This document shows, in pieces, positions 6,796 through 63,890 of a DNA stretch of 64,000 bases. The DNA comes from Yuukianura sp. NJ FZ-2021 (taxonomy: Eukaryota), in the NCBI GenBank assembly GCA_046563655.1, contig CM102283.1, positions 310,001 to 374,000 on the forward strand. The letters are read 5' to 3'. The position numbers and the translations under genes were made by a program. Below the pieces are notes generated by a model that searched no databases, had not been told where the DNA came from, and saw only the letters and a list, made by a program, of their open reading frames with translations. Within the stretch, counting starts at the first letter, position 1. Each line of letters opens with the position of its first letter.

Positions 6796-7275
6796 CTATT
6801 TTGTCTGCATCATTTTTGCATCGAATTGTTCTCAAGTAACCACAAAATAAGAATGTCATTGAATCTGTTCATGTAAATGCACAATTATTCGGATGTAATC
6901 ACCATTCTAAAAGATGTATGTGCAATTCTCTAGTATGCACAAATTTTGAAATAACAAAGTCCATTAACCAGCGTCAAAATAACTGTGGAATTCGACATAC
7001 CTAGTGAAGCAAAGGTTTTGCGGATTAGGTGGGAGAAAGCTGTTTGATTAACCTTTTGAAGGCTAAATACAACTAAAGTCGTTTGTTTTTTGCGACCTCA
7101 GGGGCCGGTTGACGACTATAGTCGTCTGTTGTTGGTTTTAAAAAACCGCTGGAGGAAATAAAAAACCGTTTTTTCCATAGCAACGTATTATGCATGCGTT
7201 GCATCGGTTTTTTGGGAAAATATGCATCGTCTCAGCAAGAAAATACAGATTATTTTGCACGCCTCAAAAGGTAGG

Positions 7276-16200: not shown

Positions 16201-19200
16201 GTGTTTTTCCAGAATACTTTGGTGCTGTAAGCCTCGCTCACCTTTCCCAACAGCAAAAATAACTGTGAAATGCACCCAAAGAAGAACAACGTGATTTCTG
16301 TAACAGGGCCAAAATGTGGCACTGGACTGCGAGTCAGCATGCCACTGGCGAAGCCAATAAAACTCGATCACGTCAAGGGATGGGACAAGTGATCCGTATC
16401 TTCATAGACTCAGTGGCCTTTCCGGCACTCGCGAAATAAGTCGTAACGACACAAAAATATTGGTTAACAGCCGCGTAATGTTTAGGCGTTGGTACCTCGG
16501 CGTAAGAGCAAGCAGAAAGCGGACTTAGGTGGTACTATTGTAACAAAGAGAAACCTATAATTACATCAGGCAAACTCGTAAAAGCCCTGATATCAGTTCT
16601 CTTCAAAGCCAAATTTTGAAGTGATGAGAAATAGTCGTTGCTATAGTTTTACAGTTTGATTAAACTAGCTTTGTTGACGCTCATGGTGTAAACTTCAATG
16701 CATTTGCGCTTGGTTTGAAAATGTGTTTTTCCAGAATACTTTGGTGCTGTAAGTCTCGCTCACCTTTCCCAACAGCAAAAATAACTGTGAAATGCACCCA
16801 AAGAAGAACAACGTGATTTCTGTAACAGGGCCAAAATGTGGCACTGGACTGCGAGTCAGCATGCCACTGGCGAAGCCAATAAAACTCGATCACGTCAAGG
16901 GATGGGACAAGTGATCCGTATCTTCATAGACTCAGCGGCCTTTCCGGCACTCGCGAAATAAGTCGTAACGACACAAAAATATTGGTTAACAGCCGCGTAA
17001 TGTTTAGGCGTTGGTACATCGGCGTAAGAGCAAGCAGAAAGCGGACTTGGGTGGTACTATTGTAACAAAGAGAAACCTATAATTACATCAGGTGAACTCG
17101 AAAAAGCCCTGATATCAGTTCTCTTCAAAGCCAAATTTTGAAGTGATGAGAAATAGTCGTTGCTATAGTTTTACAGTTTGATTAAACTAGCTTTGTTGAC
17201 GCTCATGTTGTAAACTTCAATGCATTTGCGCTTGGTTTGAAAATGTGTTTCTCCAGAATACTTTGGTGCTGTAAGCCTCGCTCACCTTTCCCAACAGCAA
17301 AAATAACTGTGAAATGCACCCAAAGAAGAACAACGTGATTTCTGTAACAGGGCCAAAATGTGGCACTGGACTGCGAGTCAGCATGCCACTGGCGAAGCCA
17401 ATAAAACTCGATCACGTCAAGGGATGGGACAAGTGATCCGTATCTTCATAGACTCAGTGACCTTTCCGGCACTCGCGAAATAAGTCGTAACGACACAAAA
17501 ATATTGGTTAACAGCCGCGTAATGTTTAGGCGTTGGTACATCGGCGTAAGAGCAAGCAGAAAGCGGACTTAGGTGGTACTATTGTAACAAAGAAAAACCT
17601 ATAATTACATCAGGTGAACTCGTAAAAGCCCTGATATCAGTTCTCTTCAAAGCCAAATTTTGAAGTGATGAGAAATAGTCGTTGCTATAGTTTTACAGTT
17701 TGATTAAACTAGTTTTGTTGACGCTCATGGTGTAAACTTCAATGCATTTGCGCTTGGTTTGAAAATGTGTTTCTCCAGAATACTTTGGTGCTGTAAGCCT
17801 CGCTCACCTTTCCCAACAGCAAAAATAACTGTGAAATGCACCCAAAGAAGAACAACGTGATTTCTGTAACAGGGCCAAAATGTGGCACTGGACTGCGAGT
17901 CAGCATGCCACTGGCGAAGCCAATAAAACTCGATCACGTCAAGGGATGGGACAAGTGATCCGTATCTTCATAGACTCAGCGGCCTTTCCGGCACTCGCGA
18001 AATAAGTCGTAACGACACAAAAATATTGGTTAACAGCCGCGTAATGTTTAGGCGTTGGTACCTCGGCGTAAGAGCAAGCAGAAAGCGGACTTAGGTGGTA
18101 CTATTGTAACAAAGAAAAACCTATAATTACATCAGGTGAACTCGTAAAAGCCCTGATATCAGTTCTCTTCAAAGCCAAATTTTGAAGTGATGAGAAATAG
18201 TCGTTGCTATAGTTTTACAGTTTGATTAAACTAGCTTTGTTGACGCTCATGTTGTAAACTTCAATGCATTTGCGCTTAGTTTGAAAATGTGTTTCTCCAG
18301 AATACTTTGGTGCTGTAAGCCTCGCTCACCTTTCCCAACAGCAAAAATAACTGTGAAATGCACCCAAAGAAGAACAACGTGATTTCTGTAACAGGGCCAA
18401 AATGTGGCACTGGACTGCGAGTCAGCATGCCACTGGCGAAGCCAATGAAACTCGATCACGTCAAGGGATGGGACAAGTGATCCGTATCTTCATAGACTCA
18501 GTGGCCTTTCCGGCACTCGCGAAATAAGTCGTAACGACACAAAAATATTGGTTAACAGCCGCGTAATGTTTAGGCGTTGGTACCTCGGCGTAAGAGCAAG
18601 CAGAAAGCGGACTTAGGTGGTACTATTGTAACAAAGAGAAACCTATAATTACATCAGGCAAACTCGTAAAAGCCCTGATATCAGTTCTCTTCAAAGCCAA
18701 ATTTTGAAGTGATGAGAAATAGTCGTTGCTATAGTTTTACAGTTTGATTAAACTAGCTTTGTTGACGCTCATGGTGTAAACTTCAATGCATTTGCGCTTG
18801 GTTTGAAAATGTGTTTCTCCAGAATACTTTGGTGCTGTAAGCCTCGCTCACCTTTCCCAACAGCAAAAATAACTGTGAAATGCACCCAAAGAAGAACAAC
18901 GGGATTTCTGTAACAGGGCCAAAATGTGGCACTGGACTGCGAGTCAGCATGCCACTGGCGAAGCCAATAAAACTCGATCACGTCAAGGGATGGGACAAGT
19001 GATCCGTATCTTCATAGACTCAGTGGCCTTTCCGGCACTCGCGAAATAAGTCATAACGACACAAAAATATTGGTTAACAGCCGCGTAATGTTTAGGCGTT
19101 GGTACCTCGGCGTAAGAGCAAGCAGAAAGCGGACTTAGGTGGTACTATTGTAACAAAGAAAAACCTATAATTACATCAGGTGAACTCGTAAAAGCCCTGA

Positions 19201-32055: not shown

Positions 32056-32249
32056 AGCTATCCCCCTAGGTTACTATAGCGTACACACTGATTCTTAGAT
32101 ATGTACGAGTGAGGGATTAGTCTCAATATAGCCTTTCGCAGAGCAACAAGCTCTTCCGTGTCTCTTGTCTGTCCATTTGACCTCATCTCTGGCTGACCTC
32201 GGCTCCACCGAGCAGCCATACAGGAGATATCCGGACGTTTCCCGTCTCA
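32056..32249 (+). repeat. 5' LTR (first ~25 bp missing)
   Basis: Direct repeat of 40413-40606, followed by the PBS-like TGGCGACAAC. Confidence 0.95.
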
Positions 32250-33322
32250 GGTGGCGACAACAGTGACTCATGACGAGTCTGGAGTCTACACATCCGAAGA
32301 TCCGAAAACACCGAAAGGACAACTTCAACAACAAAAGGAAAGAAAGGTACCCCTAACACATTAAGCTGCAACCAATTAGTGCTTTGCTTCGCTGTTTTCA
32401 TTAGAATAGCGGGTTTTCAGGTCACATTAACGTTTCTTGTGCACGGGTCATGCCCGCTTTTTCTAAAAAAAAGGCTAAAAACTTAAAGTTTACAAAATTT
32501 TCAAAATGGCTGTCCACATGAGTCTGCAATAGAGAGAAAAAAAAAAGAAAAAAAAGGAGTTCAAAAGTAAAATAAAGTAAAGACATTCGTATCAGTGAAT
32601 TAGCATATTCAATTATCTTTTTCTTTCAATTGCATCCAGTGCACTTTACCAAACATAACGGAACACAGCATCAGCACATAAACAAACAAATCTCTTCAGC
32701 TCCTTTTGCTTATACCTTGATGGTAACGACATTGATGGTCTCGGCGCTAAACTTTTTCTTCTAAAACTGCCTTGTACAGGCAAATCCCTTGATGGGAACT
32801 AAAAGTCAACGGCCTACAGTTAACTTACAAAAAACAAACACTCCCTTGATGGGAATTAAAGTCAACTTTTGCAAGTTTAACCCACAAACAAATTCAAATT
32901 AACAAAAATCAAATACAAAAGACAACAAGTTTAACTCAAAAATTAAAATACAAATTCAATCTGCGGAGTAACGGAAAATTTAAAAATCAAATCAATCTAA
33001 ATTAACAAATCACAAAAATCAGAGAATAACATCTCATTTCCCAAACTCTTTCCGTCAAACACAATTAAAGTCAATTCAAGTAAAATCAAATCAATACAAA
33101 ATACAAAGTATAAAGTACAATTCAAATAAAAATAAATGTAAAACCCACCTTGAAGGTAAACGCCCTCGAAGAGAATTTCGACTCATGTTCCTGATTGGAT
33201 GATGACGACCGGCTCATTTCCTTGTATTTTTCTGTATTTCCCCCCAGACCATGGACCCCCACCCCCGGATTTTCTGGACCAGACCCCCCGGAAGACCCCC
33301 ATTTGGCCCCCCCCCCCCAATG

Positions 33323-33520
33323 TGTAGTGGACCCTGATCCGCACCCCACTCACCCCCATAGGCTAAGTTAGGATACGGCACACAATACACACACACACTC
33401 ATTCTCTCAGTCTCAATAAACCATCCGTTGGTTTCTCATCTGTCTTGGTTGTCTCTCTCTCCGTACGCTTCCTTCTTTCCAGCATCCATCGCCAGGGTCA
33501 GAGGTCACTCCCCCGGCACA
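33323..33520 (+). repeat. LTR of a second, related Gypsy family (with its 3' UTR from ~33185) inserted before gag
   Basis: TGTAGTGG...CCGGCACA with AATAAA at ~33415. The upstream context (CCCCGGAAG...AATGTGTAGTGG...CACCCC) parallels the host element's 3' junction (CCCCAGAAG...AATGTGTAGCGG...CACCCC). Confidence 0.65.
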
Positions 33521-33572
33521 AATCAGAGATCAACAAAAAGCACTACGAGAGGCCGAACAGGAACAACAAATC

Positions 33573-34965
33573 ATGCAGCTAATTGAGCAACAAAAAATAG
33601 AGCAACAAAAAGACGTTCCACAATTTACACTACTTTCAAATCAATCTTCAACATCTCAACGAGCTATTGTACCAGTGCCATCTAGCCTCACTCAAACTCA
33701 AACTCAAACAACTCCAACATTGCAATCGAGCTTAAATAGCGTTTCTGAAACAATAGTCGAGGCAATAAAAAACATTCGCCTAACTACAGTCAACTAACAA
33801 ATCCCATTGCCAAATTTGACGCCAGACGTCACACAGCAGAATCCTTTTTGAAAGACGTTGAACGTTATTTTGTCAGTCAAGGTTATACCGCTCCCCAATG
33901 GCTATACCTCGTAAAAACGGTACTTCCCGAAGAATGTCATGCTTGGTGGCAACATACACATTCCCAATCTCAATCGTGGGATCAATTCAAAAAAGAATTT
34001 ATGGACAGATTCGACGGGAAGGGGGAACAACAGAAAAGAATGAAATTTTTAGCAAACAAAATGCAAGGATACAAAGATCCAACTGAAACGTACATTTACG
34101 AAACATTGCGTCTCGCCAAACTCTGCTATCCAAACGACAATACTTCCGAATCACTTCAACGTATACAATCATCGTCATTTCCCCGAATTCATACACAACT
34201 AATTCTCAGATCCAGCTGATATGTTCAGAGCAATTAAGAAGATTCATGAAAATTTAAAAGCGGAAGACAAGAAAAACAACATTTATGATGCACTACCGCC
34301 ATTAGTCGCACTCTCGCTTCAAAATAACTCTCATTCTCAAAATTATCATCAAAACTCCTATCGAGGAGCACCCAAAGGAAATTATTACAACAGAAGAGGA
34401 AACTCTGAAAGGCCAAACCCTCAGAATTCAGGAACTTCAAGATTTTACAATTCAAATCCACAACAAAATCCACAAAATCAACAAAATGAACAAAATCCAG
34501 AAAATAACGCCCAAGAAGGGAACCCACCTAGAAGGGAATTCAACAATTACAACAATAGAGGTTATCGCCCTCGTAACAATTACCGTGGACGTGGTTACAC
34601 AAATTATCGTGGAAGAGGTTACCGTGGAAACAATCGTCGAAGTTACAACAATTCCTACAGAGGTTACAATCCAAATCGTCGTCCTTACCGTGGTTACGGC
34701 GGACGAAACGGCAGACGAAATTACCAAGAATACTACCAACAACCTTACCTCGAAGGTCAAGGACAACAAAACCAAAATCAAAATCAAAACCAACCAGATC
34801 CAGGAAATTCTCAAAAATGCACAAAATGCCTTGGCTACGGTCACAGCAAAAGATTGTCCTACAAAACAAGGATTAGTTCTGTGTACTCAGAATGATCCCG
34901 CCTTTGTTCAAAGTTCAAGCTCAAATGAGCAACCTCAATTTCAAGACAATCAAAATTTAAACTAA
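33573..34965 (+). pseudogene. gag: Gypsy gag (capsid-like region, RG/N-rich region, CCHC knuckle), disrupted
   Basis: FLKDVERYF..CHAWW..SWDQFKKEFMDRF retrotransposon-gag motif; YRGRG repeats; CTKCLGYGH/AKDC knuckle across a frameshift. Confidence 0.85.
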
Positions 34966-35049: not shown

Positions 35050-38000
35050 CAGAATCATCTCAAATTCGAACACTTTTTGATACTGGCAGTGATTACACTA
35101 TCATCGACATCTAATTGGCAAAGAAAATTCAAAAATCTTCGATCAATGCAAGGAAAAATCATTCTTTATTGCAAATAATTCAACAATTCAACCAACTGGC
35201 ACAATTCAATTGCAAATTAAGTTTGGAGAAAACGTTCTCCACACTACAGCCTACGTCATGGAACAGTTACCATTTCAATTAATAATTGGCAACGACGTTC
35301 TGAACAAATATCAAATCATCATTGATGTCTCCGAAGACAAATCTTGGTTCAAAAATCAACCAAACATCAAATTCAATACTCAATTCTCCAAAACCAATCC
35401 AAACAAAACTGTGTGTCTCAACGTCACAAAAGAAGATCCAACTCCACAGTCAATTGTAGACCCAACAGAAAAGAAAATTCTCGACTTACTTGCTCAATTT
35501 CCAGAAGTAGCAAAAAACGGCAATGAATACGGCAGAACAAACTGCACTCGTCATGAAATTGAGACAATTGGTCCACCAATTGCTCTCCAATCATATTCTT
35601 ATTCTCCAAATATTCGAAAAATTCTAAATCACGAAATTGAACAACTACGGAAAAAAGACATGATCCAACCATCAAGTTCACCTTACGCAGCCCCTGTCGT
35701 CATGGTCAAAAAGAAATCAGGCTCTTATCGCCTTTGTGTCAACTACATGAGACTAAATGAAACAATGAAAACTAACGCAGGCCTAATGGACAATGTCAAT
35801 TCAATTCTACGTACAATTCCCATGAACCACGTTTATTCTGTTATCGACATGAATGGCAGGTTTTTCCAAATTCCAATGCACGAGAATAGCATTCACAAAA
35901 CAGCATTCATTACTCAAGATGGTCACTACGAATTTAAAGTTATGGCTATGGGACTCAAAAATCACCAAAAACCTTCCAATCATTAATGCGAAACGTTTTA
36001 CATGGATATGTGGACGTTTTCGTCAAAATTTTCATGGATGACATACTCATTTACTCAGAAAACATGGAACAGCATCTTATTCACCTTAAATTAATCCTCC
36101 AAAGACTAAAGGAAGCCAATTTAACAATCAATAAATCTAAATCGACATTTACAAAACCCTACGTTGGATACTTTGGTCACATCGCTTCCAAAAATGGTAT
36201 TCAAAAAGAACCACACACGATGATCGCAATTAATAATTACGCAATTCCACAAAACAAACCCGACCTCTTCCGATTCCTAGGTCTCTGCGGATGGTACTCG
36301 ACTTTTATTCCAAACTTTAGTCAAAAAGCGGAAGCCCTCTACCATTTACTACGAAAAGAAAACGCATGGAGATGGGACCCTCCGCAACAAAAATCATTTG
36401 AAGATTTAAAAACAGCCATCTGTGCAGACGTCATACTCGCAACTATCGACTATTCAAAACCATTAATCATGCAGTGCGACGCTTCAACCAACGGTTTAGG
36501 CGCAGCACTTGTGCAAGAATATGATGGGAAAGAACGCCCCATCATGTTTGTCAGCAAGACTCTCAAAAATTCGGAACGTTCAGCTCATATCTACGAAAAA
36601 GAACTCTACGCAATTATTTCCGCTTACGACAAATTCCATGAATTTATTGAAGACCACCCCTTCATTATTGAAACAGACAACCGAGCAATCCGATATTTAA
36701 AAGGCATGAAAAACAAAAAACCCAAACTAATCAAATGGGCAATTGAAATTACATCATGGAATACGAAACTATGGTTTCGAAAAGGTTCCGAGAACGTGGT
36801 AGCGGACGCGTTATCGCGGGCAAGTGTTCCTGAAAATGAAGACGATCCTGATCTATTTAAGAAAGAGAAAAGCTTCACCTTCCAAAATTTCTCCTTGTGT
36901 ACTGCACAGCATCCTTGATGGAGATAGCCCAGGAGCAACAAAAAGATCCAATTCTTACCAAAATCATTACTACATTAAACTTTTCGGAAAACCTAGGGCC
37001 CGGGAACTCCAAGAAGTACAAGATGGAAAATAACACATTATTCATCAAAATCTCACCATTTAAACTCACTACTACAAATCAAAAATTGAAATCAATTCTC
37101 CAAAAGACAACAGGACCGTATACACCTGATTGTCAAATTCCAATTTGTACTACAAAACAATGTCCTCATTTTCAAAAATCTCAAGAAACTAATACTACAG
37201 GAGAAATCCACCTTGATGGTTTATTTACAAAAAAACACTCTGATGAGTTAATAAAAAATCTAGAAGATTACTTTGTTCCAGTTATTCCAGAAAATTTAAA
37301 ACAAAAAATTCTCCAAATATTTCATGATGCACCCGAAGCCGGCCACTTCGGAAGAAAGAAAACAATTGAAAGAATCAAGCAAAGATGTTATTGGAACAAC
37401 ATGAATAAAGAAACTGCAGGCTATGTCAAGTCCTGCCCAAAATGTCAAGCATCATAACCAACAAATCAAAAGCCTTATGGTCTTTTACAGTTAGCGAAAT
37501 CAGCTACTTCAGTATTTTCAACTTTACATGTGGATTACATGGGACCATTTCCCACAAGCATTGGCGGAAGACAACATAAAAATTTTCTTGTCGTCATTGA
37601 CGAATTGTCCAAATGGGTAGAATTATTCCCAATAAAGGACGCTACAGCAGAAAAAAACAGCAAACATTATCGAAAATAAAATATTTTGCAGATTCGGCGT
37701 TCCAAAGAAAATCCTTTCGGACAACGCTAGACAATTTGACGGCAATGTCACTGCCGAACTATGTGAAAAATGGGGCATTGAACACAAGTTCATCGCAGCT
37801 TACCACCCTCAACCGAATCAATTAGAAAGAACAAATAGAAACATAAAAAAGATGCTCCAAATCTACATTGAATCAAGTCACCACAAATGGGATGAACACA
37901 TACAGAAATTTGCATTAGCAATTCGAACTGTCATAAACGAAACAACTCAAGCCTCACCTTCACCACTTAACCTTGGCAGAGAAATTAAACTGCCGTTTGA

Positions 38001-38680
38001 TCGAAAACTAGAAGCAGAAACGGAAAATTCCGAAAATGCTGTTGAACAACTGAAAAAGTTACCAGAACTACTAAAAGAAATGATTCATTTTGTGAGAAAA
38101 AATATAAACAATGCACATCAGAAATCTAAAATAAATTACGACAGAACTCACCGTCAAGACAATTTTAAAACAGGAGAATTAGTTCTCATTAAATCTCATT
38201 TCCTGTCTGACAAGGACGCAGGATTTATGGCCAAACTTTATGGCAGGATTTATAGCCAGGATTTATGGCAAGGACCCTATGTGTCAGGTTAAAGAACTTC
38301 TAATGTAACCTTTGACATATTACAAATCGAAGACAAAAAATCTATTGGTAAAAGACATGTGTCGCAAATAAAACCATTTGTTCAAAGAGAAACAAAAATA
38401 AAAACGTTACTGAACTACCAAAAGACAATTCAAACTCAATTAATCAACCAATAGCTGTTAATGAAACAACAGAACCTTCACGTAGAAATCTACGAGACAG
38501 ACAAAAATTAAATTATCGCGAATTAGCAGGTTTTCGTTCAAAAACTATCGCTATAATCACTGAATCCGAATGGGATAAATTATTAAACTTCAACGATTAT
38601 TTAGAATCGTGCGACGAAATTATTATCGAAACAAAGAAAAACTTAGAAACACACCTTGATGGTTCTATACTAACTACATA
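35050..38680 (+). pseudogene. pol: Gypsy pol: protease, RT, RNase H, integrase (frameshifted)
   Basis: LFDTGS (PR, ~35075); PSSSPYAAPVVMV..YRLCVNY..KTAFIT..FMDD (RT); CDAS..GLGAALVQ..KELYAI..ETDN..NVVADALSR (RH); HDAPEAGHFG..CPKC, DYMGPF, AYHPQ.N..ER.N (IN). Confidence 0.95.
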
Positions 38681-38756
38681 AAGCTTGCATGACGCTTGCA
38701 AAATACTAAAAATTAATCACTCAACTAAAATGTAATATTTTTCTTTATATTACAGA

Positions 38757-40256
38757 ATGCCTTCTCCAATTAAAACTACGGTGAAGCCGGTAAACTACCC
38801 AGCCAAACGCCCAATGGAAAATTCACAGTATTTCCAATTTCAAAAATGGGTTTAGGAAAGAAACAAGAAAGGATTCGAATTTACTTCAAATCCAAATCAC
38901 AACTTGATTCGTGACTTCAATCTTTGTCCACCAAAAACATTACCAAATTTTGATGCAAGTACTGATGACACTCGATCTACAACTCCACTAATCATGTTGC
39001 AAGACGACAACGACTTTTAAAGTACGAAAAACGACCTTGAAGGTTCTACGGAAATTGCAATCGACTTGGAATTCTCGAGATCATTCGTATTGTGGATCAA
39101 CTTACACAGCAGTACTTCAAATTTCAACTCAGAAAAATGATTATCTCATTTGTCCCTTTCAATTTGGACACAAAGGACACGCATTTGCGAGTCTAAAAGA
39201 CTGATCAACATAACATTGAACACAACAAAGATATCCAAACCGCAAGATTTATTAAAAGTCACTAAAATTGGCAAAACTGACAGATACTTCAGAAATCAGT
39301 TCATGTTTCCTCGAGGAATTATCAAACGGAATCCAAATAAACCCGATTCTTACATTGTCATACCTCCAAATTCTGATCAAAAATCAACTCGAGCAAAACC
39401 ACTTCCAGAGGATGACTGGGACGAACCAACGACAACTTCAAATACAACGCAAATTCGAAAGAGTCAACCCCCAAAACCAATCCAAATTCAACTTAATCAA
39501 AACGACCAGAGAATCGTTCAAGAAATCGACACAATGTCAACAAAGTCATGGGATGACGAAATTTCTCTTCACGATTCTGATGAAGACATAAATACATTTT
39601 TACGACCAATCTCTACAGCATCAACCCAAACTGATGATTCAAAAATTGCTACTTCCGAGATTGCATGCCAAATTACACCATTATCAACAAACACCGCAGA
39701 AAAAGAAATTCAAACAGAGGAAAATGACGAAATCGAACTCGAAATTCAATGGGAAGAAATCGTCGAAACTGCACGAAAGCAAATCTCCGAACAAATCAAA
39801 AATCAACCAGAAATTGAAATCATGGAAATTCCAGAAACTCCAAACCAATCAGAAATTCAACCAATTGAAAATTCGGTTCCAAGTTCCCCTGAAATTCAAA
39901 TTATTGAACCACCTCAAAATCAAATTCCGATTCAGCATCAATTTATTCCCCATGCTGCTTTATCTGCTTCAAATCTGATCATGTTCGCCGAAACTGTCCG
40001 AACAACTCTCCAGAAATTCGATTATCTCTTTCCTTCCAGAAAGAAAGGAAATACAGAAGACAAATCCTTGAAAAACAATATCGCCACTATTTCAAAAAGT
40101 GTCGGGAAAAGTACGAAAAACATTCTTCGAAATCTTCGAACCTTGCAAGAAAATAAAATTATCAAATTAAAATTATCAGGAAAAAAAAATAATAAAAATA
40201 TCAAAAAAATCATCAAAAAAAATATACATACTCAAAATAAAATTATCAAAATATAA
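38757..40256 (+). pseudogene. Gypsy ORF3: N-terminal Rrp6/RNase D-like DEDDy exonuclease fragment followed by an acidic/low-complexity region and a basic tail
   Basis: Splice acceptor TTTTTCTTTATATTACAG (ends 38755) sits next to ATG 38757. Manual translation: NPNHNLIRDF..TTPLIMLQDDNDF*STKNDLEGSTEIAIDLEF, then after a frameshift near 39075 RDHSYCGSTYTAVLQISTQKNDYLI. It continues into ORF 39150-40256. Confidence 0.65.
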
Positions 40257-40387
40257 AATTTAATTTCCCCACTCTACGCTAATTGGTATTCTCTCGAATA
40301 CGAATTCGAGCCATAGAGGACCCACTGAGGCCGGTAGAGACCCCAGGATACCCCCAGAAGGAGGCCCACTTTCTTCGCGGCAGAATG

Positions 40388-40606
40388 TGTAGCGGTAGAT
40401 GACCACACCCCCAGCTATCCCCCTAGGTTACTATAGCGTACACACTGATTCCTAGATATGTACGAGTGAGGGATTAGTCTCAATATAGCCTTTCGCAGAG
40501 CAACAAGCTCTTCCGTGTCTCTTGTCTGTTCATTTGACCTCATCTCTGGCTGACCTCGGCTCCACCGAGCAGCCATACACGAGATATCCGGACGCTTCCC
40601 GTCTCA
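40388..40606 (+). repeat. 3' LTR
   Basis: TGTAGCGG...GTCTCA; direct repeat of the 5' LTR. Confidence 0.95.
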
Positions 40607-42294
40607 CCGTTTAATTGAACCAAAATCATGTTAAATTTTTGAGGCCGAAAACATCTGCACTGAATTGTAGTTGTTAATTTGTTGTGCACCAAATGTACAA
40701 AATTGAACGTTTAGGAGAAGGGGACGAATATCGTTCTTGATTTATGTTCTTAAAGACGGCTTATTGTTGATTTATTCACAACAATCGTTTCCGTTAACAA
40801 CTACAAAATTGATTTCTGTTTAACGCCAGACGTCGGCATATTTGTTCGTTTTCACCGAAATCCATCTTCGGTGACTCGTTTCGTACAAACATACAAACAC
40901 TTGCCGATGTCTTGGTGATTTACGTCGATTCGAAATCAAACTTCCAGAATTTTTGGTCAGTTTGTAAAATTTGTGCCAGGGACCCTTAGGATGGACATAG
41001 AAGTATGATTAATGGTATCAAAATTTGTGAAAAGCGATTGCGGGGTTTTCTATGGAATAAAAATTGGAAATTCCACCGTTTAAACCTAAAAAACAACGAT
41101 CATTCGTGACTACTTTTGTTTCATCGAATGCAACTTTTAAACGGGTTAAGGTATTTAAAACCTGATTCCATAGGATACCCCGCCATGCTCTTCCGCATGT
41201 TTTGGTACCTTACTTTACCCTCTACGTTGATCCTACGATTTTTAACTGATTTTAGAAAATGGTCAATTTTCAGTAGTTATCAGAACTTTTCGTTGCCGAG
41301 CGAACAGAGCCTTAATTTGTTGAGGAAGATGCACATAATGTATTGTCGTTGTCATGGCAATACTCAAGGTAGTTATCAAACCTGCACATACCTTCAATTG
41401 TGTGCATCATGTGTGCACAAAATTGTATGTTGTGGTGTGGTAGACTGGTTAAAAATCAAATGGAGAAAACATAGTTAACTAAGTTGTAGCGCCTAACCTT
41501 GCAAATGAAAATTTTTTGCGAAAGAAAAATTTTGGTGAAAAAAAAAAGTTCAATTTTTTAACGTTAAGGGGTGCGCAGCTTGTCCGAAGTCTGAAATCCG
41601 CTTTAAGCATCGTCATTGTATTTCTTAATTAATTTGTTAATTTAATTAATTAATTATCCCCTTGTAGCTACACAACATAACTCTGCACCGAGCTTGTACA
41701 ATGACGATCGATAAGCCTCATTGCAACAGAGAAGGTATTCAAAACACCGGAAATCGCACTATGCCAAATTCGAAATTTTAGACACAGCAAAAGTGCATTT
41801 GGTATTTGAACTTACCGATTACTAATTTGAACCAATTAATGAAACTTTGATCAAATCTGTAGTTAATTTGGGGGAAATTATTTTTTTTAATTTTTCTTAT
41901 AGAAAAAATAAGAGTTTGAAACGTTAGGCACTTCGAAATTCATACTTTTGTGGCTTTTAACCAGTCTACTGGGGTAGGGGTAGAATATCGTTTGTTTAAA
42001 ATCAAAATCATAGAAATTTCTTGTTAATGCAAATTCGAACCTTCCCATTCGCTGCTTACATATTACGAATTTAAACCGGAATTTCTACCCTTTAACTAGG
42101 CTTAAATTAACAATGTGAATAAACGTACTGTCAGCAAATGACAGGGTCAAAACTTCGTTGTTTAAATAAATTTTGAGTATAATCTAAACCAAAAAATGTC
42201 GGGAAACGACTTTACAGCGTAAAGTGGTCGCCCATTTCTACGTTGTTAATATAACACTTTATATAGCACTTTATGAGTGCAATATAGACTTAAT

Positions 42295-43746: not shown

Positions 43747-46700
43747 TTAAACGCCGAGCGGAGCTGTAGAGTGGTTATCAACCACAGAGACAGAAGTTCC
43801 TTCAATTCCTGGCACTGTTCCCGAAGTAGGCGTGTTGGTTTTAGAATGGTTCATGGAGTACGTAACCCCGCCAAATCCATGCAGAGTAATGTCATGTTCC
43901 GACATGTACCCTGGAATCTGTAAGTGATTCGGCGCAATGATCGTAAACAGTTCTTGTAGTCCCGCAATATTTTGGATCCTAGGCTTGATCGCAGGCGCCA
44001 TGAAGGTAGTGAACCACCAGGTTAAGATCTGTAAAACGTTAAGAACCTTAGCCTTTGCTGAGTGGACCTCACAGGAGTTTAGCATAGGTCCAAAAATTAT
44101 CGCTAACGTATTCACTTACTTTTGTCCACAAGGTTGGATGGACTATGCGTAGTGATTTGAGATTCTTCTTAAATCTGTACTCCATGTTGTCATAGACAGA
44201 TCTCATCCAGCGAAAGGACGGGTGATTTTCTGTTTCCGTTTTCGTATGGAAGTAGATGACTGTGTAGTCACCATTGATATCATCCAGCAATTTCACCAAA
44301 TATAGGAACGCTTTATCTATAACCATTCAACCGCAATTTAATTTTTGTCATCCGCATTTAGGTTAGGTTCAGTTAACATTAACTTTACCGTTAAGTTACT
44401 ATAGTGGTTTGTCTGTCTGTCTGTCCGTCCGTCTGTCTGTCCAGATTAATTATCTCAGAAACTACTGGTCGGATTTGATTCCGGTTTTCACCAGTGACCA
44501 TGTCATGACCCGGGCTTGGTCACTATTGAATATGACCCCCGTGTGTCAACTCCTTCCGGGTCAAAGCTCAAGGTCAACCGGTTTTATCCCCGGTAATATG
44601 GAAAATGACCTCTACAAAAGTTGTTCATCTCATCCAGACCAACAACTTTTGTGTGTAATGTGTGAGCCTAGGTCACCTGCTTCCGGGTCAAAATTGATTT
44701 TAAAGGTCATTTGTAATGCAAGTGTGGGTAAAAAAACTCTTTTTGTGAGACTGGAAAGGCAATTGGCATGGGACTTGATTCTCTGCTTAGCAAAAAATCT
44801 ATTACGCAGTTAACATGTACACGTGTGCCAGTCGCCTATCCATTCGTTCTGTTGTTGCTTCATCCAGATCCCACCTCTCCTCATCTTTGTTTGAAGTCAC
44901 TGCGACATCCCATAGGAGGTGAGGAAGTGGGAGAAACACCCTCTCTCCCCCGGGGCACTCACCCCCTCTCCTCCGGGGCACTCACCCCCTCTCTCCCGGG
45001 GAACCACCCCTTCTCTCTCGTGCAACCACCCCCTCTCCCCCGGGGTACCCACCTGCTCTCCCCCGGGGAACACACCCCCGCGCTCCCTGGGGTGCGGAGC
45101 AAAAAAGTGGGGGGAACACTCCCACTCCCCCCGGAGGGGCAGGAAAGTGGCGGAACACACCCCCGCGCTCTCTGGGGTGCGGAGCAAAAAAGTGGGGGGA
45201 ACACCCCCACTCACATGGGGGGGGGTCGGAAAATGGGGGGGGGGGGCACCGCCACTCCCCGGGGGGAAGTGGCGGGCGTCAAAGTGGGGAAAACACACTT
45301 TCACTCCCCCGGGGTGGGGGCGGGAAAGTGGGGGAACACCCCCACCCCCTGGGGGGCAACCCCTTATTTCTGAGCTATTATCAGTATGCGCAGTTTACAA
45401 CCGGTTTTTATAATAGCGAAGCTACTATTATAGAAGACGTCTGTCTGTCTGTCCGGATAATGTACCTCGGAAACCACTGGTCCGATTTGATTCCGGTTTT
45501 CACCAGTGACCATGTCATGACCCGGGCTTGGTCACTATTGAATATGACCCCCGGGTGTCAACTCCTTCCGGGTCAAAGGTCAAGGTCAACCGGTTTCATC
45601 CCCGGTAACATGGAAAATGACCTCTACAAAAGTTGTTCATCTCATCGAGGGGAACAACTTTTGTGTGTAATGTGTGACCCTAGGTCACCTGCTTCTGAGT
45701 CAAAATGGATTTCAAAGGTCATTTCTAATGCAAGTCTGGGTACAGAAAACTCTGCTTGTGAGACTGGAAAGGCAATTGGCATGGGACTTGATTCTCTGCT
45801 TAGCAAAAAGTCTATTACGCAGTTGACATGTACACGTGTGCCCAGTCGCATATCCATTCGTTCTGTTGCTTCATCCAGATCCCACCTCTCCTCATCTTTG
45901 TTTGAAGTCAATGCGACACCCCATAGGAGGTGAGGAAGTGGGAGAAACACCCTCTCTCCCCCGGGGCACTCACTCCCTCTCCCCCGGGGCACTCACCCCC
46001 TCTCCCTCGGGGCACTCACCCCCTCTCCCCCGGGGCACCCACCCCCACGCTCCCTGGGGTGCGGAGCAAAAAAGTGGGGGGAACACCCCCACTCCCCCCG
46101 GACGGGCGGGAAAGTGGCGGAACACACACGCGCGCTCCCTGGGGTGCGGAACAAAAAAGTGGGGGAACACCCCCACTTCTCCGGAGGGGGCGGGCGTCAA
46201 AGTGGGGTGAGCACACCCCGACTTCCCCGGGGAGGGGCGAAAAAGTGGGGGGACACCCCCACTCCCTGGGTGGCAACCCCTTATTTCTGATCTATTATCA
46301 GTATTCGCGGTTAATAGCGAAGCTATTATAGAAGACGTCTGTCTGTCTGTCTGTCTGTCTGTCCGGATAATGTACCTCGGAAACCACTGGTCCGATTTGA
46401 TTCCGGTTTTCACCAGTGACCATGTCATGACCTGGGCTTGGTCACTATTGAATATGACCCCCGGGTGTCAACTCCTTCCGGGTCAAAGGTCAAGGTCAAC
46501 CGGTTTCATCCCCGGTAACATGGAAAATGACCTCTACAAAAGTTGTTCATCTCATCGAGGGGAACAACTTTTGTGTGTAATGTGTGACCCTAGGTCACCT
46601 GCTTCTGAGTCAAAATGGATTTCAAAGGGCATTTCTAATGCAAGTTTGGGTACAAAAAACTCTGCTTGTGTGACTGGAAAGGCAATTAGCATGGGACTTG

Positions 46701-49700
46701 ATTCTCTGCTTAGCAAAAAATCTATTACGCAGTTGACTCAACTGTCACCTGTCACACTTCATCTGTTACATCTCACTTGTCACCTGTCACACTTCATCTG
46801 TTACATCTCACTTGTTACCTGTCACACTTCATCTGTTACATCTCACTTGTTACCTGTCACACTTCATCTGTCATATCTCACTTGTCACCTGTCACACTTC
46901 GTCTGTCACATCCCACTTGTCACCTGTCACACGTCACTTGTCACTTGTCACCTGTCACACATCACTTGTCACATGTCACACGGCACCCGTCACGCAGGAA
47001 AATGGGGGCACCCACCCCCTCTCCCCCCGGGGAACCACCCCCTCTCCCTCGTGGTACCCACCCCCTCTCCGCTGGGGAACCCACCCCCTTTCCCCCGGGG
47101 TACCCACCCCCTCTCCGCCGGGGAACCCACCCCCTTTCCCCCGGGGTACCCACAACGCGCTCCCTGGTGTGCGGAGCGAAAAAAGAGAGGGGAACACCCC
47201 CACTCCCCCCGGACGGGCAGGAAACTGGCGGAACACACCCCCGCGCTCCCTGGGGCGCGGAATCAAAAGTAGGGGAAACACCCGCACTCCCCCCGGGAGG
47301 GCGGGAAAATGGGGGGAGCACCCTTACTCCCCCTGGGGGGGGACGAAAAGTGGGGGCACCCCCACTCACCCGGGCTACCCACCCTCTCTCCCCTGGGGCA
47401 CCCACCCCCGCGCTCCCTGGGGTGCGGAGCAAAAAAGTGGAGGGAACACCCCCACTCCCCCGGGGGGGGCGGAAAAGTGGGGGAACACCCCCACCCCCTT
47501 GGAAGGCAACCCCTTATTTCTGAGCCATTATCCGTATGTGCGGTTTACAACCGGTTTATTATAATACGATGTGAGTCTTACCCAAATCGATGCTATCTGG
47601 ATTAAACCATTTCCCGACAACCACCAGCACGGGACGTCCTAACCTATCAGGACCGCTTCGATAAAGGCAACCAATTTTTGCAATGGAACTCAAATCTTCT
47701 TCATGAGCTCTGCGTAGAATCCTAGCTTGCCTGTAAAACAAAAACAACAAATTAGATATCAACCAAGTTCGCAGAACATTTTGTTTGTCACTGACGGATC
47801 TTCATAGATTCCTTTCACAGTAGAGTCCATTTCTTCCAATGTCTAAACAGTAAAAGTAATTTCAAAAAGTTGAAACATGTATAATCCCGATAACTTTGGC
47901 GAACGATAAAATCCGGAGAAATTAGTTTAAATGATTTGAAATTTAACTTCACACTCCTAATAAAATCATACCACAACGGATAAGGAAGGAAGAACTAAAT
48001 GAATTGACTCACAGTTACTAGCTGAATTGCGCTTTGTTATAACGAAAATCCAAATTCTTCCGTACTTCAGCAAGTAAAGATAAAAAATGCTGAACAGGGT
48101 GAGTAATCCCTATTAAAGTCATTGCTTAGGTGTTAATGCTTGACGCACCGTCAAGTGAAGTGGAATCACTTGACATCGATATGTCAGCTATTGACATAAA
48201 AGAATCTATATTTACATATTGTTGTTGAGTTCAAAACTGTAGAAATAAAAACAATAACCTCTTGAGTTTGACTCTGAGTAATAAAATTCAGTTGCTCACC
48301 GTTCTCTTGTTTCAATTTCAATTGCAATATGGCGCTCCCTATCGTTCATGCTCTGGAAACTGGGCCGTCTCCTGCCGTGAGCGTCAAACAATAGCCGTTC
48401 TTTGTCCACGTCGTCCTTCATCGTTACAAAATCCCGATTAAGTTCTGGAAGAATGCACTGACTGGAATCATCATCAACGTCTCTCAGATTCGGATTCTCC
48501 GCGGGATTAGAGAAGATTCGAATTCTCCTATCTGGCCACCATGTAGCACCAGTTTCATCTCCAATTTCTTTTGGCAATCGTGAACAGGCGAACTCTTCAT
48601 GGGAAGATTCTCTCGGAAAATAGGAAACCATCAAGGATTCGTACAATCTGCCAAAATTAAAAAAGAGTTAAGTGAAGGTGCACTCTCCTCTTATTTAGCG
48701 AAGTAACTTTGATCCGGAAGCGCTAATATGTATGGTATTGGTGGTTTTCAGCATGATTATTGCAAATATAAACTTGCTCCAATATTGCCCAATCACCTGA
48801 ATAGGTTTGGATCCGGAACGCTGAGGATGATAAGACTGGGGTACGAATGACCCTTCTCCAGGAATCGCCTGACTGTGCGCATTGCAATATGTACACCAAG
48901 TTCATCCGGAAACAATGTCTTTCCACCGTAATGAAGCGGCGGAATTCCAACAATTGTGAAGCTCCTTTCCAGAGAAAGCTTAAAAAAACAAAGTTGTGCA
49001 AATACATTCATAACGGACAAATTCAATATATTATTTAAACTAGTATACCTGAAGTACTGTGTTGTAGCAACTAAAAAGTGCAGTTTGTGCAGCAGTTTTG
49101 TATTGATCCGAGTACTTAGGACTAACAGTTAGGATGACATGTCGACATGGAAGATTTGGATGAGATTTGATCACCTAAAAAAAAGAATTATAAAACATTC
49201 AATATAAATTCTGACCCAGGGAAAAGCTTAAAAACTTCAAATGATTTTAACGTTGAATTAAATTAAAATTACTTTAGCATCACCCGTTCGGATTGAATGA
49301 ATTTCAGAACGAATTTCACGTTGGTAGTCGTGCCCAGTCCTTTCAAGTAATCCAGGAGAAAAATCGGACAGGGCTTCATTTGTCAATTGTGTCAAGCCAT
49401 CCATACACAATGAGAAGACGTCTCCATACCTGCGAATAGTACACAATGAACAAAGTTATTAGCTTACGCGTCCGCAATTACAATAACTTTCTCAGGGCGG
49501 TGAAGGAATACTGAAACAAGGACTTGGGGGGACTGGGAGTATTAAAAAACAGTATTGATCAGTCACACCGACAATCATTACCGATAATAGTACTGACAGG
49601 CTGGGAAATCGATGTCCGCAAAATTCCACTCACATGCAAATTCCGTATGTGACATTTCACATTTTATGCGTCATTCTTGTCGTTAGAAATTAAGTCTTGC

Positions 49701-60311: not shown

Positions 60312-60702
60312 TATTCTGGCAAATGCTGAACTAGACTAAAAATCAATTTTGAATTGCTAGTTGTTTTGTCAGTTAAGCATTGCGAACCAAACACATCTTG
60401 CAACTTGAGAGCAAAACAATGGCCTTTTATAAACCTGTTCCTGATAAAAATTTGAGACGTTTTTTTTCCAAAGAATTCCCAAATTTTAATATCATACTAA
60501 AACTAAATAGATTTTTTTGTGTGTTTTCGCTTACTGGACCAGAAGTTGAAACAAAGTTTTGAACTGCTAAAATTGTTCTAAAAATAATCATATCAGAAGA
60601 AATGGTCAATGGTACATTGGATCATCTTCATCGTTCATTGATTACTAAATGAACTGGACAGCTGATTTCGACAACTGAAACTTCATCAATCAATGACCTC
60701 CG

Positions 60703-61479
60703 ATGACCTCTACTGAAGAACCAAAGACCCGAGGAAGGAAAAGGAAATCACAACAGGAAGAATCACCGGCTACAAAATCACTCAAAATGGGAGAGCCTAG
60801 CATTTCTTCAGTTCTTGCCGCTATCAAATCACTGAATGACAAGATGGACACCAACCATGCTGGAATAACTCAACAGATTCAATCACTCAGCACTGAAGTA
60901 ACAACTATCAAACAAAGAATGAAGGCATCCGACGATTTTCAAAGAACACTGTCTACTCAAATTGAATCTCATGATTCCGACCTTGAACGTCTCCAAATCA
61001 CCGTCAACAAAATCAACCAAATCGTTCACGGTCTTCAAATTACAAATAATGAAACGGCTGATTCCGTCAAAAATGAACTTGAAAGAATCTTCTCACTTGC
61101 TGTGCCGCTGATGAATCTTCCGATCATCGACGACAACTATCGTCTGGGTCGTCCTACTCCACAAAATTCCAGCAAGCCAGTCAAAGTGATTTTCAAATCA
61201 CTTAAAGCAAGGAACACGATTTGGAAAGACCGTAACATAATCAAAACTGCTTATCCTCACCTTAATATCACTCAAGATCTACCCCTGCAAACTAGGCAGA
61301 AACTCGCAGCACGTCGCCAAAATCGGAATGCATCTCCAGGATCGATTCAAAATTCACAACAAACTTACTCACAAGCCACATCTACTTATCCGAATCAAAC
61401 TTCCGCTGTATTTGGCAACAGCACCTTCACTCGACGTTCTCCGCCTCCTGCTCCACTACTTAATCAAAATACAGCCTGA
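60703..61479 (+). CDS. LINE ORF1 (coiled coil + RRM-like), CR1/L2 type
   Basis: 258-aa ORF with a heptad coiled coil and IDDNYRLGRP..KPVKVIF..I.QDL motifs, directly upstream of an APE endonuclease. Confidence 0.75.
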   Translation: MTSTEEPKTRGRKRKSQQEESPATKSLKMGEPSISSVLAAIKSLNDKMDTNHAGITQQIQSLSTEVTTIKQRMKASDDFQRTLSTQIESHDSDLERLQITVNKINQIVHGLQITNNETADSVKNELERIFSLAVPLMNLPIIDDNYRLGRPTPQNSSKPVKVIFKSLKARNTIWKDRNIIKTAYPHLNITQDLPLQTRQKLAARRQNRNASPGSIQNSQQTYSQATSTYPNQTSAVFGNSTFTRRSPPPAPLLNQNTA

Positions 61480-61504
61480 CTATCACGAGACTCGACCAAT
61501 CTCA

Positions 61505-62420
61505 ATCAACTAAAAATTGCTGGTCTAAATGTCTGTAATTTCAATCCGAAGTGTGACCTAATAAATCTTTTTCTCGACATTTACGACGTTGATATCCTGT
61601 GCATCTCAGAAACTCATTTGAACGAAAAACATCCGCCACGCACCGTAGAAGGCTACAACTTCATTCACACTGACCGTTCTTGGCAATCTAAAGGGAGTGT
61701 CGGAATTCCTATTAGGTCGTCCTTAAAGTTTTCGCTGAAGTTAACTTCACTATCTGAAAACCGAAACTTTGAAGTCATTAGTGCTGTCATACGACTGAAA
61801 TCAAACAAGTCTATAATCGTGTCTAGTGCATACAGGATTCCAAACTACAACACAGGTGCAATCGAAGCTGATTTGAACTCTATGACCGAACTTTTCAGCA
61901 CACTAGCTATCACCAACAAAAGTTGTTTTGTTCTTGGTGATTTCAACCTAAACCCAACCTACATTCCAAATAACTTTCAAACCAATTTTAAATAAACAAC
62001 TTCAATCTTTAAACAACTTATCACTACTCCAACGAGGGGAAACTCAACACTAGATCTTATTTTCACCAATTGCCCAGAAATTGTGACAAGCACAGTAGTC
62101 ATTAATCCTGGCATTTCGGACCATCTTTCAACTCATGTAACGGTCACCCTTAAAAAGCCGAAACTCCCCAAAGTAAAAATCAAATACGAAGACTACAAAA
62201 ACTTCGACTACGAAGAATTTGGGCTAAAGCGTGTGTTTACTTCATTTGACAAAAACAATAGAGACTTAGAATTGCAATTTCAAGAACTTATCTCCAAAAT
62301 CGGCAAACATTTCACAGACACGATCCAAACAAAGACTATCTCATTAACACAACGAACGATACCACTCCAATTATCAGAGAAAACAAAATCCCTCATCACC
62401 CAGCGTGATTTACTGATTAA
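61505..62420 (+). pseudogene. LINE ORF2 APE endonuclease (CR1/L2 type), truncated
   Basis: LNVCN, DILCISETHL, YRIP, VLGDFN, PTRGNSTLDLIFTN, GISDH motifs; internal stop at 61993-61995. Confidence 0.85.
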
Positions 62421-63709
62421 TTCGTTGAACTTGTCTTTAGTTCAGAAAGAAAACCTATATTTCAGTCTCTCCTAGAAAAACAGCGTTATTCTATCGGGGT
62501 ATCCCTCTGCTTTCCCCGATTTAACCTCCCTGACCTCTTTGTTAAGTCAAGTAGGGAGGACAGAGGGATGTCTGCAAGGTCTGTTCTATCTAGGAATGCT
62601 TTCCCAAACAGAACAAGCCTAGTACGGGCGTGCCCCTCGCATCCCAACAGAAAATGGTCTCTACTTTCCTCCTCCTTCCCACAGACACTGCAGGTTGGGG
62701 AGCCCGCAAGTCCTATTCTGTATAGGTGCTTTGCTAGCAAGCAATGTCCGGTCACAATCATAGCCAGTAGACGCAAAGATCCTCGGCCGAGGCTTAGACA
62801 GAACTTTGCCGTTTTTTTGCTGAAACTAGTCAGCAGCGTTTTTGCGTCTTTGCAGTCCTGGCTGTTTCTCCACCTTTCCTCGTGGCACTGCTTCCCCCAT
62901 CTGCTGATAGCATTGTGTACAGTGCTCACAGGTACAGGTAGAGTAGGCGCAGGACCAACAAATGGTATTTCCGTTGCTTCCTTAGCTAATCCATCGACAG
63001 TCTCGTTCCCTTCGTACCCGCTATGTGCTGGTATCCAGTGTACTGTGACTTGCCTGGTGTTGGCCAATGTGTTGAACGCGTCAAAGCATTCTCTAACCAT
63101 GCCAGCTTGTGGCCAAGGGCTAATTAGAGAGTCTAGAACGCTCTTTGAGTCTACGTAAATGTGCGCGGGGAAGGCATTTCTTTGAAGTAATAGTCTTCTC
63201 GCCGCACCTAAAAGGGCAAAAACCTCCGCCTGGGGCACGCTAGGGTGCTCTCCCAGAGGTAGTTTGTACCCTTTTGCTGGTCCATCCGGTGGAACGATGT
63301 AAAACGCTGCACCAGATTTCCCGTCAATGCGTGAACCGTCAGTGTAGCAGTTTATCGCATCACCCGGAGGACCATGTTTTGCCTTTTCCTTCCACTGCTT
63401 CCTTGAGATCACTTCTATTTCAAAGAATCTCTTAGTCGGCAGTGTGTTATATCTCTCGCAAGGAAATCCAATTTCTGGGATATCGCATGCGAATGATTCG
63501 CAAACTTGTGCGTGAGTTTGGGTCTTCAGAAAGTTGACCCTAGCGGAAATCCAATCACTAGAGATTCTAAGCCGGTGCATGGTCCGGAGTACAACCTCCT
63601 TAAGATGGATGTCTAGCGGTCTTAGGTTCAATAGAGCCTCCATGGCTGCTGTCGGTGTAGATTTCATCACTCCGAAAGTCGCCAACAGGGCAGCTCTTTG
63701 AACCTTGAC
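62420..63709 (-). mobile_element. 5'-truncated R1/LOA-group non-LTR retrotransposon (RNase H + CCHC knuckle)
   Basis: KVQRAALLATFGVMKSTPTAAMEALLNL, YTDGSR, QAEVFAL, YVDS, WIPAHSGYEGNETVDGLAK, TGHC..HL, CSVC..ESRDHFLLGC; ORF 62486-63685 is open. Confidence 0.88.
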
Positions 63710-63890
63710 AACATCATGGCCTTACCAATCGAGCTTCGGTCAATGCTGTCCAACGCATTTCCAACTAAAGTACGTGCCACTTTATTCAAATTCCTTATCG
63801 AGTCTCAGCGTATCTCGGAATTGAAGATGTTAGAACAGATGGACGATGGCCTAGAATTGCTACTCCATATTTTTAACACATCTTAATCAT
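63710..63890 (+). mobile_element. Probable resumed 3' end of the CR1/L2 ORF2
   Basis: ALPIELRSMLSNAF..KV..LFKFL resembles the CR1/L2 C-terminal LP...R...S...F motif and is followed by an AT-rich tail. Confidence 0.45.

Follow-up and report, generated by a model that had tools for sequence, protein, structure and literature searches.

A decayed Ty3/Gypsy retrotransposon with a probable Rrp6/EXOSC10-derived exonuclease segment in its third reading frame

What does the reading frame that follows the integrase of an LTR retrotransposon encode, when it does not look like an envelope gene, and from where was it acquired? This question is raised by an element located within a 64,000-nucleotide stretch of DNA (referred to here as the window). 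A preliminary description of this locus had proposed that the third frame (ORF3) of a Gypsy retrotransposon carries an exonuclease-like sequence in place of env. The element in the window is a decayed member of a Ty3/Gypsy LTR retrotransposon family that is present in multiple copies, and the first third of its ORF3 was probably derived from a cellular DEDDy 3'-5' exoribonuclease of the Rrp6/EXOSC10 type.

The element lies on the plus strand between two direct repeats, a 5' LTR at 32056-32249 and a 3' LTR at 40413-40606, which differ at 4 of 194 positions. The 194 nt represent the part that is common to both LTRs; both terminate in CA, the shared part is without an initial TG, and the 5' LTR is possibly cut at its 5' end. 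The 5' LTR terminus (...TCTCA) is followed by GG and then, from 32252, by the primer-binding-like site TGGCGACAACAG. No target-site duplication was resolved around the LTR pair. The Pfam domains between the LTRs occur in the order gag, Ty3 protease, reverse transcriptase (RT), RNase H, integrase zinc-binding, and integrase core. This arrangement of two LTRs around gag and a pol ordered PR-RT-RH-IN is that of a Ty3/Gypsy LTR retrotransposon, in agreement with the earlier assignment to Gypsy. The gag remnant (33749-34219) matches Retrotrans_gag (E 6.9e-5) and Ty3_capsid (E 5e-4), both under the Pfam cut-offs. Protease, RT, and RNase H occupy 35093-36918 in two different frames with a break within RT; matches to Peptidase_A2B and RT_RNaseH_2 (E 3e-30) were obtained in this region, and RVT_1 is divided over the stop-to-stop pieces 35093-35986 and 35938-36918. 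The integrase (36861-38681; Integrase_H2C2 E 1e-20, rve E 2.4e-7) is distributed over at least three frame pieces, which include a zinc-binding piece (36861-37457), a core piece (37636-38292), and a C-terminal piece (38352-38681). Since these domains occupy stop-to-stop pieces in different frames, and RVT_1 is itself divided, pol has at least four breaks. A search of protein clusters with the RT/pol sequence retrieved generic Ty3 RT/RNase H clusters and no useful taxon. The arthropod-like character proposed in the preliminary description is not supported by these clusters, nor by the labels of the public runs that contain the element, which go no further than invertebrate-associated.

ORF3 extends on the plus strand over 38757-40256, from an ATG at 38757 to an end stop at 40254-40256. 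It is interrupted by three internal stops (TAG at 38853, TAA at 39018, and TGA at 39138). These three stops in 499 codons compare with about 33 expected from base composition, and with 12 and 27 in the other two frames, and ORF3 is therefore a real coding frame, or was one until recently, with far fewer stops than composition predicts. Pfam searches revealed no env family match in ORF3, and no membrane span was detected (best 19-residue Kyte-Doolittle mean, 1.13). The C-terminal part of the frame (39181-40256, plus strand) comprises 1.1 kb rich in I, K, T, S, and E, and it has no recognisable family in Pfam, in a protein database, or in protein clusters.

The part of ORF3 that resembles Rrp6/EXOSC10 spans 38973-39173 (plus strand), from just before the Exo I motif to the helix that follows it, and is read in two frames; a weaker extension back to 38889 was aligned by eye. 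The D-L-E of Exo I is encoded at 39063-39071, with the D at 39063-39065 and the E at 39069-39071. These are the two residues that the preliminary description had placed at 39063 and 39069, and in alignments they coincide with the D-L-E of Rrp6 chains from yeast and of an Rrp6 profile. Because this D and E are in the ORF3 frame and ...HSYCGSTYTAVLQISTQKNDYLI is encoded in the next frame from 39082, the frames must switch between 39072 and 39082 on the plus strand; the best join takes the left part to 39080 and the right part from 39082. The translation proposed previously, which starts at ATG 38757 and passes through two stops (38853 and 39018) and one frameshift, is base-exact in the sequence. 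An assembly indel error at the frame change is unlikely, as there is no homopolymer at this site. The ORF3 gene is dead in the window copy, its frame being interrupted by the three in-frame stops, by the frame change just past the D-x-E of Exo I, and by one deletion.

To read across these interruptions, the two frames were joined in a single peptide (P0001), in which X replaces the stop and marks the frame change. At E<=10, the only Pfam family matched by P0001 was PF01612 (DNA_pol_A_exo1; E 0.0023). A match to this profile had been named beforehand as the check on the homology; it was obtained, and as the sole family, but its score of 18.2 bits is under the gathering cut-off of 23.6. In the PDB, P0001 matched nine sequences at E<=10, the best with E 5e-4. 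Every one of them is Rrp6; seven distinct ones carry the name 'Exosome complex exonuclease RRP6' and two the name 'Ribosomal RNA processing protein 6'. Chains of RNase D, WRN, EXD, polymerase exonucleases, and human EXOSC10 are absent from the PDB matches at this threshold; thus, the closest solved relatives are Rrp6 and not RNase D, WRN, EXD, or polymerase exonucleases. Neither frame alone matched anything in Pfam or the PDB. The segment contains the common Rrp6 pattern ...TEIAIDLE..HSY.G...LQIST...DYLI. The remaining catalytic motifs were reported earlier as not visible, and indeed Exo II (the acidic residue in the H-G-A...D stretch) has no match among 2645 six-frame pieces of the window, and Exo III (Y-x3-D) has none in any frame of the window. 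HRDC likewise has no match to the Rrp6 profile in any frame of the window, and neither PMC2NT nor HRDC was matched in Pfam at E<=10 by the 500-residue read-through of ORF3.

Searches of sets of 5.8 billion and 1.84 billion proteins identified no relatives of ORF3. When the 500-residue read-through was searched at protein lengths of 275-875, none of the best 8000 word-sharing candidates that were scored gave a match. The bridged peptide P0001 yielded one candidate at near lengths and 38 candidates at longer lengths, with no match among them. A 94-residue single-frame piece, searched with full HMMER against 1.84 billion representatives, had one match, to a 360-residue tandem-repeat protein (P0002), which we judged to be due to chance. 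No relative was found in viral contigs searched with P0001 and with RT/RNase H, nor in prokaryote genome contigs searched with both as a check for contamination. Rfam gave 0 matches on the whole window.

Other copies of the element provide a view of the family beyond this broken member. Part of this region is present in five public runs, of which four, among them X1, X2, and X5, were aligned to the window. Public contigs with two organism labels cover 38000-40700 at 80% to 99% likeness, and the word depth over the Rrp6-like segment (approximately 80-220, a depth that does not equal copy number) is similar to that over the integrase. An X5 contig of 1535 nt, which carries the label of another organism, spans from the integrase to 39173 at about 91% likeness; over 38000-39173 it shows 74 letter differences and 30 gaps, and beyond this point at least 255 further letters bear no resemblance to the window. 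On the other side, an X2 contig of 510 nt joins the window at 39181 after 49 unmatched letters, and X5 loose ends were also found before 39181. Because the X5 contig departs at 39173 and X2 and X5 sequences rejoin at 39181, other copies hold sequence that is missing here between 39173 and 39181. The simplest reading of these breakpoints (39173-39181, plus strand) is an internal deletion in the window copy, consistent with the suggestion in the preliminary description that this copy is deleted. The contiguity of the segment with the integrase in another copy, along with its integrase-like depth, likewise supports the view that it is a family gene and not a private insertion. A host gene fragment beside the transposon was ruled out on two grounds: the segment is flanked by the integrase and the 3' LTR, and in another copy no break separates it from the integrase.

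The sequence beyond the breakpoint continues the resemblance to Rrp6. In the frame of ...DYLICPFQFGH, the 30 letters after 39173 in the X5 contig were read by hand as K-IQELSEIFQ-S. The consensus of the Rrp6 profile after Exo I is ...DWIVDTLKPLREKLEVLNEVFADPKIVKV..., including ...KLEVLNEVFAD..., and K-IQELSEIFQ-S matches the L-x-E-[VI]-F stretch of this consensus in register with one gap. This extension is from one contig only, and is independent both of the choice made by the earlier reader and of the TEIAIDLE motif used for fishing. Because other copies extend the Rrp6 match past 39173, the captured piece was longer than is seen here; Exo II and Exo III in the family rest on these 30 letters of one contig, and no intact copy was seen. 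No nuclease activity is possible from the window copy, because the 39173/39181 deletion takes the rest of the catalytic domain, including Exo II and Exo III. Further downstream, 36 nt that are present in X1 and X2 contigs, and matched by X5 loose ends, are missing from the window copy at 39311/39312, a second deletion that is in-frame and within the C-terminal part of ORF3.

We propose that the founder of this family acquired part of an Rrp6-type mRNA, beginning past the N-terminal PMC2NT domain. The acquisition may most simply have occurred by template switching in reverse transcription, and the captured piece would then have been retained within an expressed accessory protein. That a functional nuclease exists somewhere in the family is doubtful, if conceivable. 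If there are intact copies, their likeliest role would be the trimming of RNA or single-strand 3' ends on the element's own RNA or cDNA, as has been suggested for the DEDDy ORF3s of bdelloid rotifers (PMC5408684). A role against small-RNA or exosome surveillance, as put forward in the preliminary description, for instance as a decoy or competitor of the nuclear exosome, would be purely speculative. The full scenario, in which a high-copy Ty3/Gypsy family in an invertebrate-associated genome captured Rrp6/EXOSC10 independently of bdelloids, and its intact members make a working nuclease (as ORF3 or as a Pol tail) that trims the 3' ends of their own RNA or cDNA or competes with the nuclear exosome, is speculative and, taken as a whole, rather unlikely.

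The homology to Rrp6 could also be real without the segment ever having been a working nuclease, if transduction brought a short stretch of a host Rrp6/EXOSC10 transcript into the 3' region of the family, where it has since decayed neutrally in all copies. Such a passenger would be expected to look much like the window copy, in which only about 65-95 residues are Rrp6-like, PMC2NT, HRDC, Exo II, and Exo III are absent from the window, and stops and a frame change fall inside the segment. It would also be compatible with the abundant contig form (X1), in which 13 gaps relative to the window fall within 38811-39124. However, the ORF3 frame is far more open than composition predicts, and in other copies the match to Rrp6 extends past 39173. 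We therefore regard neutral carriage of a host fragment in every copy as unlikely.

The spliced, env-style subgenomic mRNA that the preliminary description proposed for ORF3 is putative. A pyrimidine tract followed by CAG (38737-38756, plus strand) constitutes a splice-acceptor-like motif; its AG occupies 38754-38755, and ATG 38757 begins two bases after it. This motif was originally described as a strong splice acceptor; the tract and CAG are present and well placed, but by a loose rule the site is 1 of 10 acceptor-like sites in the 8.2-kb internal region, and is thus unremarkable. Strict patterns, which are a weak test, identified no splice donor in the leader (32250-34300). Furthermore, ORF3 continues the frame of the C-terminal integrase piece, with only two stops, at 38679 and 38733, in between. 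This shared frame, together with the leader that is without a donor-like site and the other stops that the window copy has acquired, would suit an exonuclease-like region that is the C-terminal domain of a Pol polyprotein and not a separate, spliced ORF3. However, two stops in 25 codons are denser than the three in 499 codons of ORF3, suggesting a true spacer, and ATG 38757 has the acceptor-like tract; a Pol-borne domain is therefore improbable.

A separate ORF3 has a counterpart in the gypsy-type errantiviruses of Drosophila, where the env ORF3 is expressed from a spliced subgenomic mRNA. The ORF3 in the window resembles errantivirus env in its location after the integrase and in the acceptor-like tract just 5' of its ATG, but unlike env it has no signal peptide, membrane span, or env family match.

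The strength of the Rrp6 match was evaluated with a profile and a scan that tolerates frameshifts. A P0001 scan of metagenome contigs provided 13 loci for the profile, of which 12 were used (L011 is identical to L010 and was left out). All 13 are cellular Rrp6 genes with about 50% GC, an architecture extending from PMC2NT to the C-terminus, and the TEIAIDLE motif; they are not transposon copies. Since the loci were fished with the query's own TEIAIDLE, only scores in which this motif is masked are unbiased. In a six-frame search with the Rrp6 profile, the top 2 of 2645 pieces were 39021-39137 and 38992-39201, which are adjacent and colinear in the profile. The scan set contained 254,908 two-frame joined peptides (every position on both strands, in both shifts, joins and stops being written as X), which were scored against the exonuclease region of the profile (130 positions; rows with <40 residues in range were dropped). 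The best of all these joins was 39080/39082, at 41.4 bits; masking of the eight TEIAIDLE columns left it with 20.1 bits. The corresponding scores of the runner-up locus, at 50695 on the minus strand, were 12.9 and 14.0 bits. The 13 control windows comprised one reversed sequence and 12 versions shuffled in 300-nt blocks. Unmasked, any match was seen in 1 of 13, and none exceeded 14.9 bits; masked, any match was seen in 3 of 13, with 14.7 bits as the highest score. By exponential-tail extrapolation, a masked score such as that of the segment is expected approximately 0.004 times per window, a figure that is an estimate and not a computed P-value.

The Rrp6-like fragment of the minus strand at 50767-50693 (HxYxSF...CLMQIST) has no open frame around it, and at 14 bits is within the range of the controls, so it was rejected as a chance match; its CLMQIST serves as a warning on short-motif matches. 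In tblastn, the sum E-values for the Rrp6 match were only 0.014-0.14, and an unrelated chance match in the window had an E-value of 0.021.

That a short TEIAIDLE motif and a flattering choice of frame shift merely mimic Rrp6 Exo I is very unlikely: the Pfam, PDB, and tblastn scores are marginal, single frames are silent, a seven-residue CLMQIST match occurs elsewhere in the window, and the earlier reader was free to match any of many families, but with TEIAIDLE masked the site exceeds all other joins in the window and the 13 controls by >5 bits, such a score is extrapolated to about 0.004 per window, the order of the two adjacent pieces follows the profile, and the independent 30-letter extension from another copy keeps the match in register. 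We are therefore confident that the homology of the segment to Rrp6 is genuine. The identification of the post-integrase segment as an Rrp6/RNase D-like DEDDy sequence, first made by eye, is upheld by the Rrp6-only PDB matches, the top-ranking frameshift-tolerant join, and the D..E of Exo I.

DEDDy-exonuclease ORF3s have been described in the bdelloid rotifer LTR retrotransposons Juno and Vesta (Rodriguez, Kenefick & Arkhipova 2017, PMC5408684), so the bdelloid precedent invoked in the preliminary description exists; in a literature search of limited reach, these were the only LTR retrotransposons found with DEDDy exonuclease ORFs. According to that paper, the bdelloid ORFs are RNase D-like and have the DEDD residues altered to DEED, their resemblance to one another and to the ORFs of Athena/Terminon being much stronger than that to the cellular enzymes Rrp6, WRN, mut-7, and RNase D (PMC5408684). 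The window element is similar to Juno and Vesta in being an LTR element with a DEDDy-derived third ORF after pol that is without transmembrane or env features and of unproven function. In contrast, full-length copies of Juno and Vesta are described there as scarce (PMC5408684), and the family in the window has high depth. They also differ in that all PDB matches here are Rrp6, from which the published description sets the bdelloid ORFs apart (PMC5408684). The Rrp6-only PDB matches point to a cellular exosome gene as the source of an independent capture, and argue against membership in a pool of retroelement-borne DEDDy sequences. An Rrp6-type capture that is independent of the bdelloid elements, and is seen here in a dead copy, is probable.

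What the segment has in common with cellular Rrp6/EXOSC10, the 3'-5' exoribonuclease of the nuclear exosome, extends from ahead of Exo I as far as the next helix. Unlike the cellular gene, the window segment has no PMC2NT, Exo II, Exo III, or HRDC, and it is multicopy, broken, and situated inside an LTR element. DEDDy domains also occur in another type of mobile element, the Dada DNA transposons, where a DnaQ-like DEDDy domain is located within the transposase and keeps all four catalytic residues (PMC3706591). Dada and the window element are both mobile elements with a DEDDy domain, but Dada is a DNA transposon that has this domain inside its transposase (PMC3706591).

Accessory genes other than env are rare in LTR retrotransposons and reveal the borrowing of host functions. 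The DEDDy ORF3s described to date, which are from bdelloid rotifers only, look as if they were exchanged among retroelements and not derived from hosts. If true, a further case in an abundant family, this time of the Rrp6 type, would show that exonuclease capture is recurrent. It would also offer a tractable system, with many copies and a clear cellular donor, for distinguishing whether such a nuclease aids replication or blunts nuclear RNA surveillance. As the window copy is dead, it is only a pointer to the family, and matters only if whole copies exist elsewhere.

The element is embedded in a repeat-rich part of the window. Upstream, a satellite array at 7200-28900 consists of about 41 units of 522 bp with approximately 99% identity between neighbours, and past 28900 it is followed by variant units of 322/323 bp that continue to about 32050 and abut the 5' LTR. 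Directly 3' of the 3' LTR, the word depth leaps to approximately 7,000-17,000 at 40607-40700 (X1 and X2), and because of this jump the element is taken to adjoin another, far more abundant repeat. A GC-rich block (0.50-0.53) at 44400-47500 contains a duplication of about 1012 bp, C-rich 23-bp minisatellites (...CCCCCGGGG...), and 35-bp repeats of the GTCAC type. Finally, pieces of non-LTR retrotransposons are present in opposite orientations at 60697-63721, with a coiled-coil-like ORF and an Exo_endo_phos endonuclease (61480-61995) on the plus strand and RNase H and zf-RVT (62486-63721) on the minus strand.
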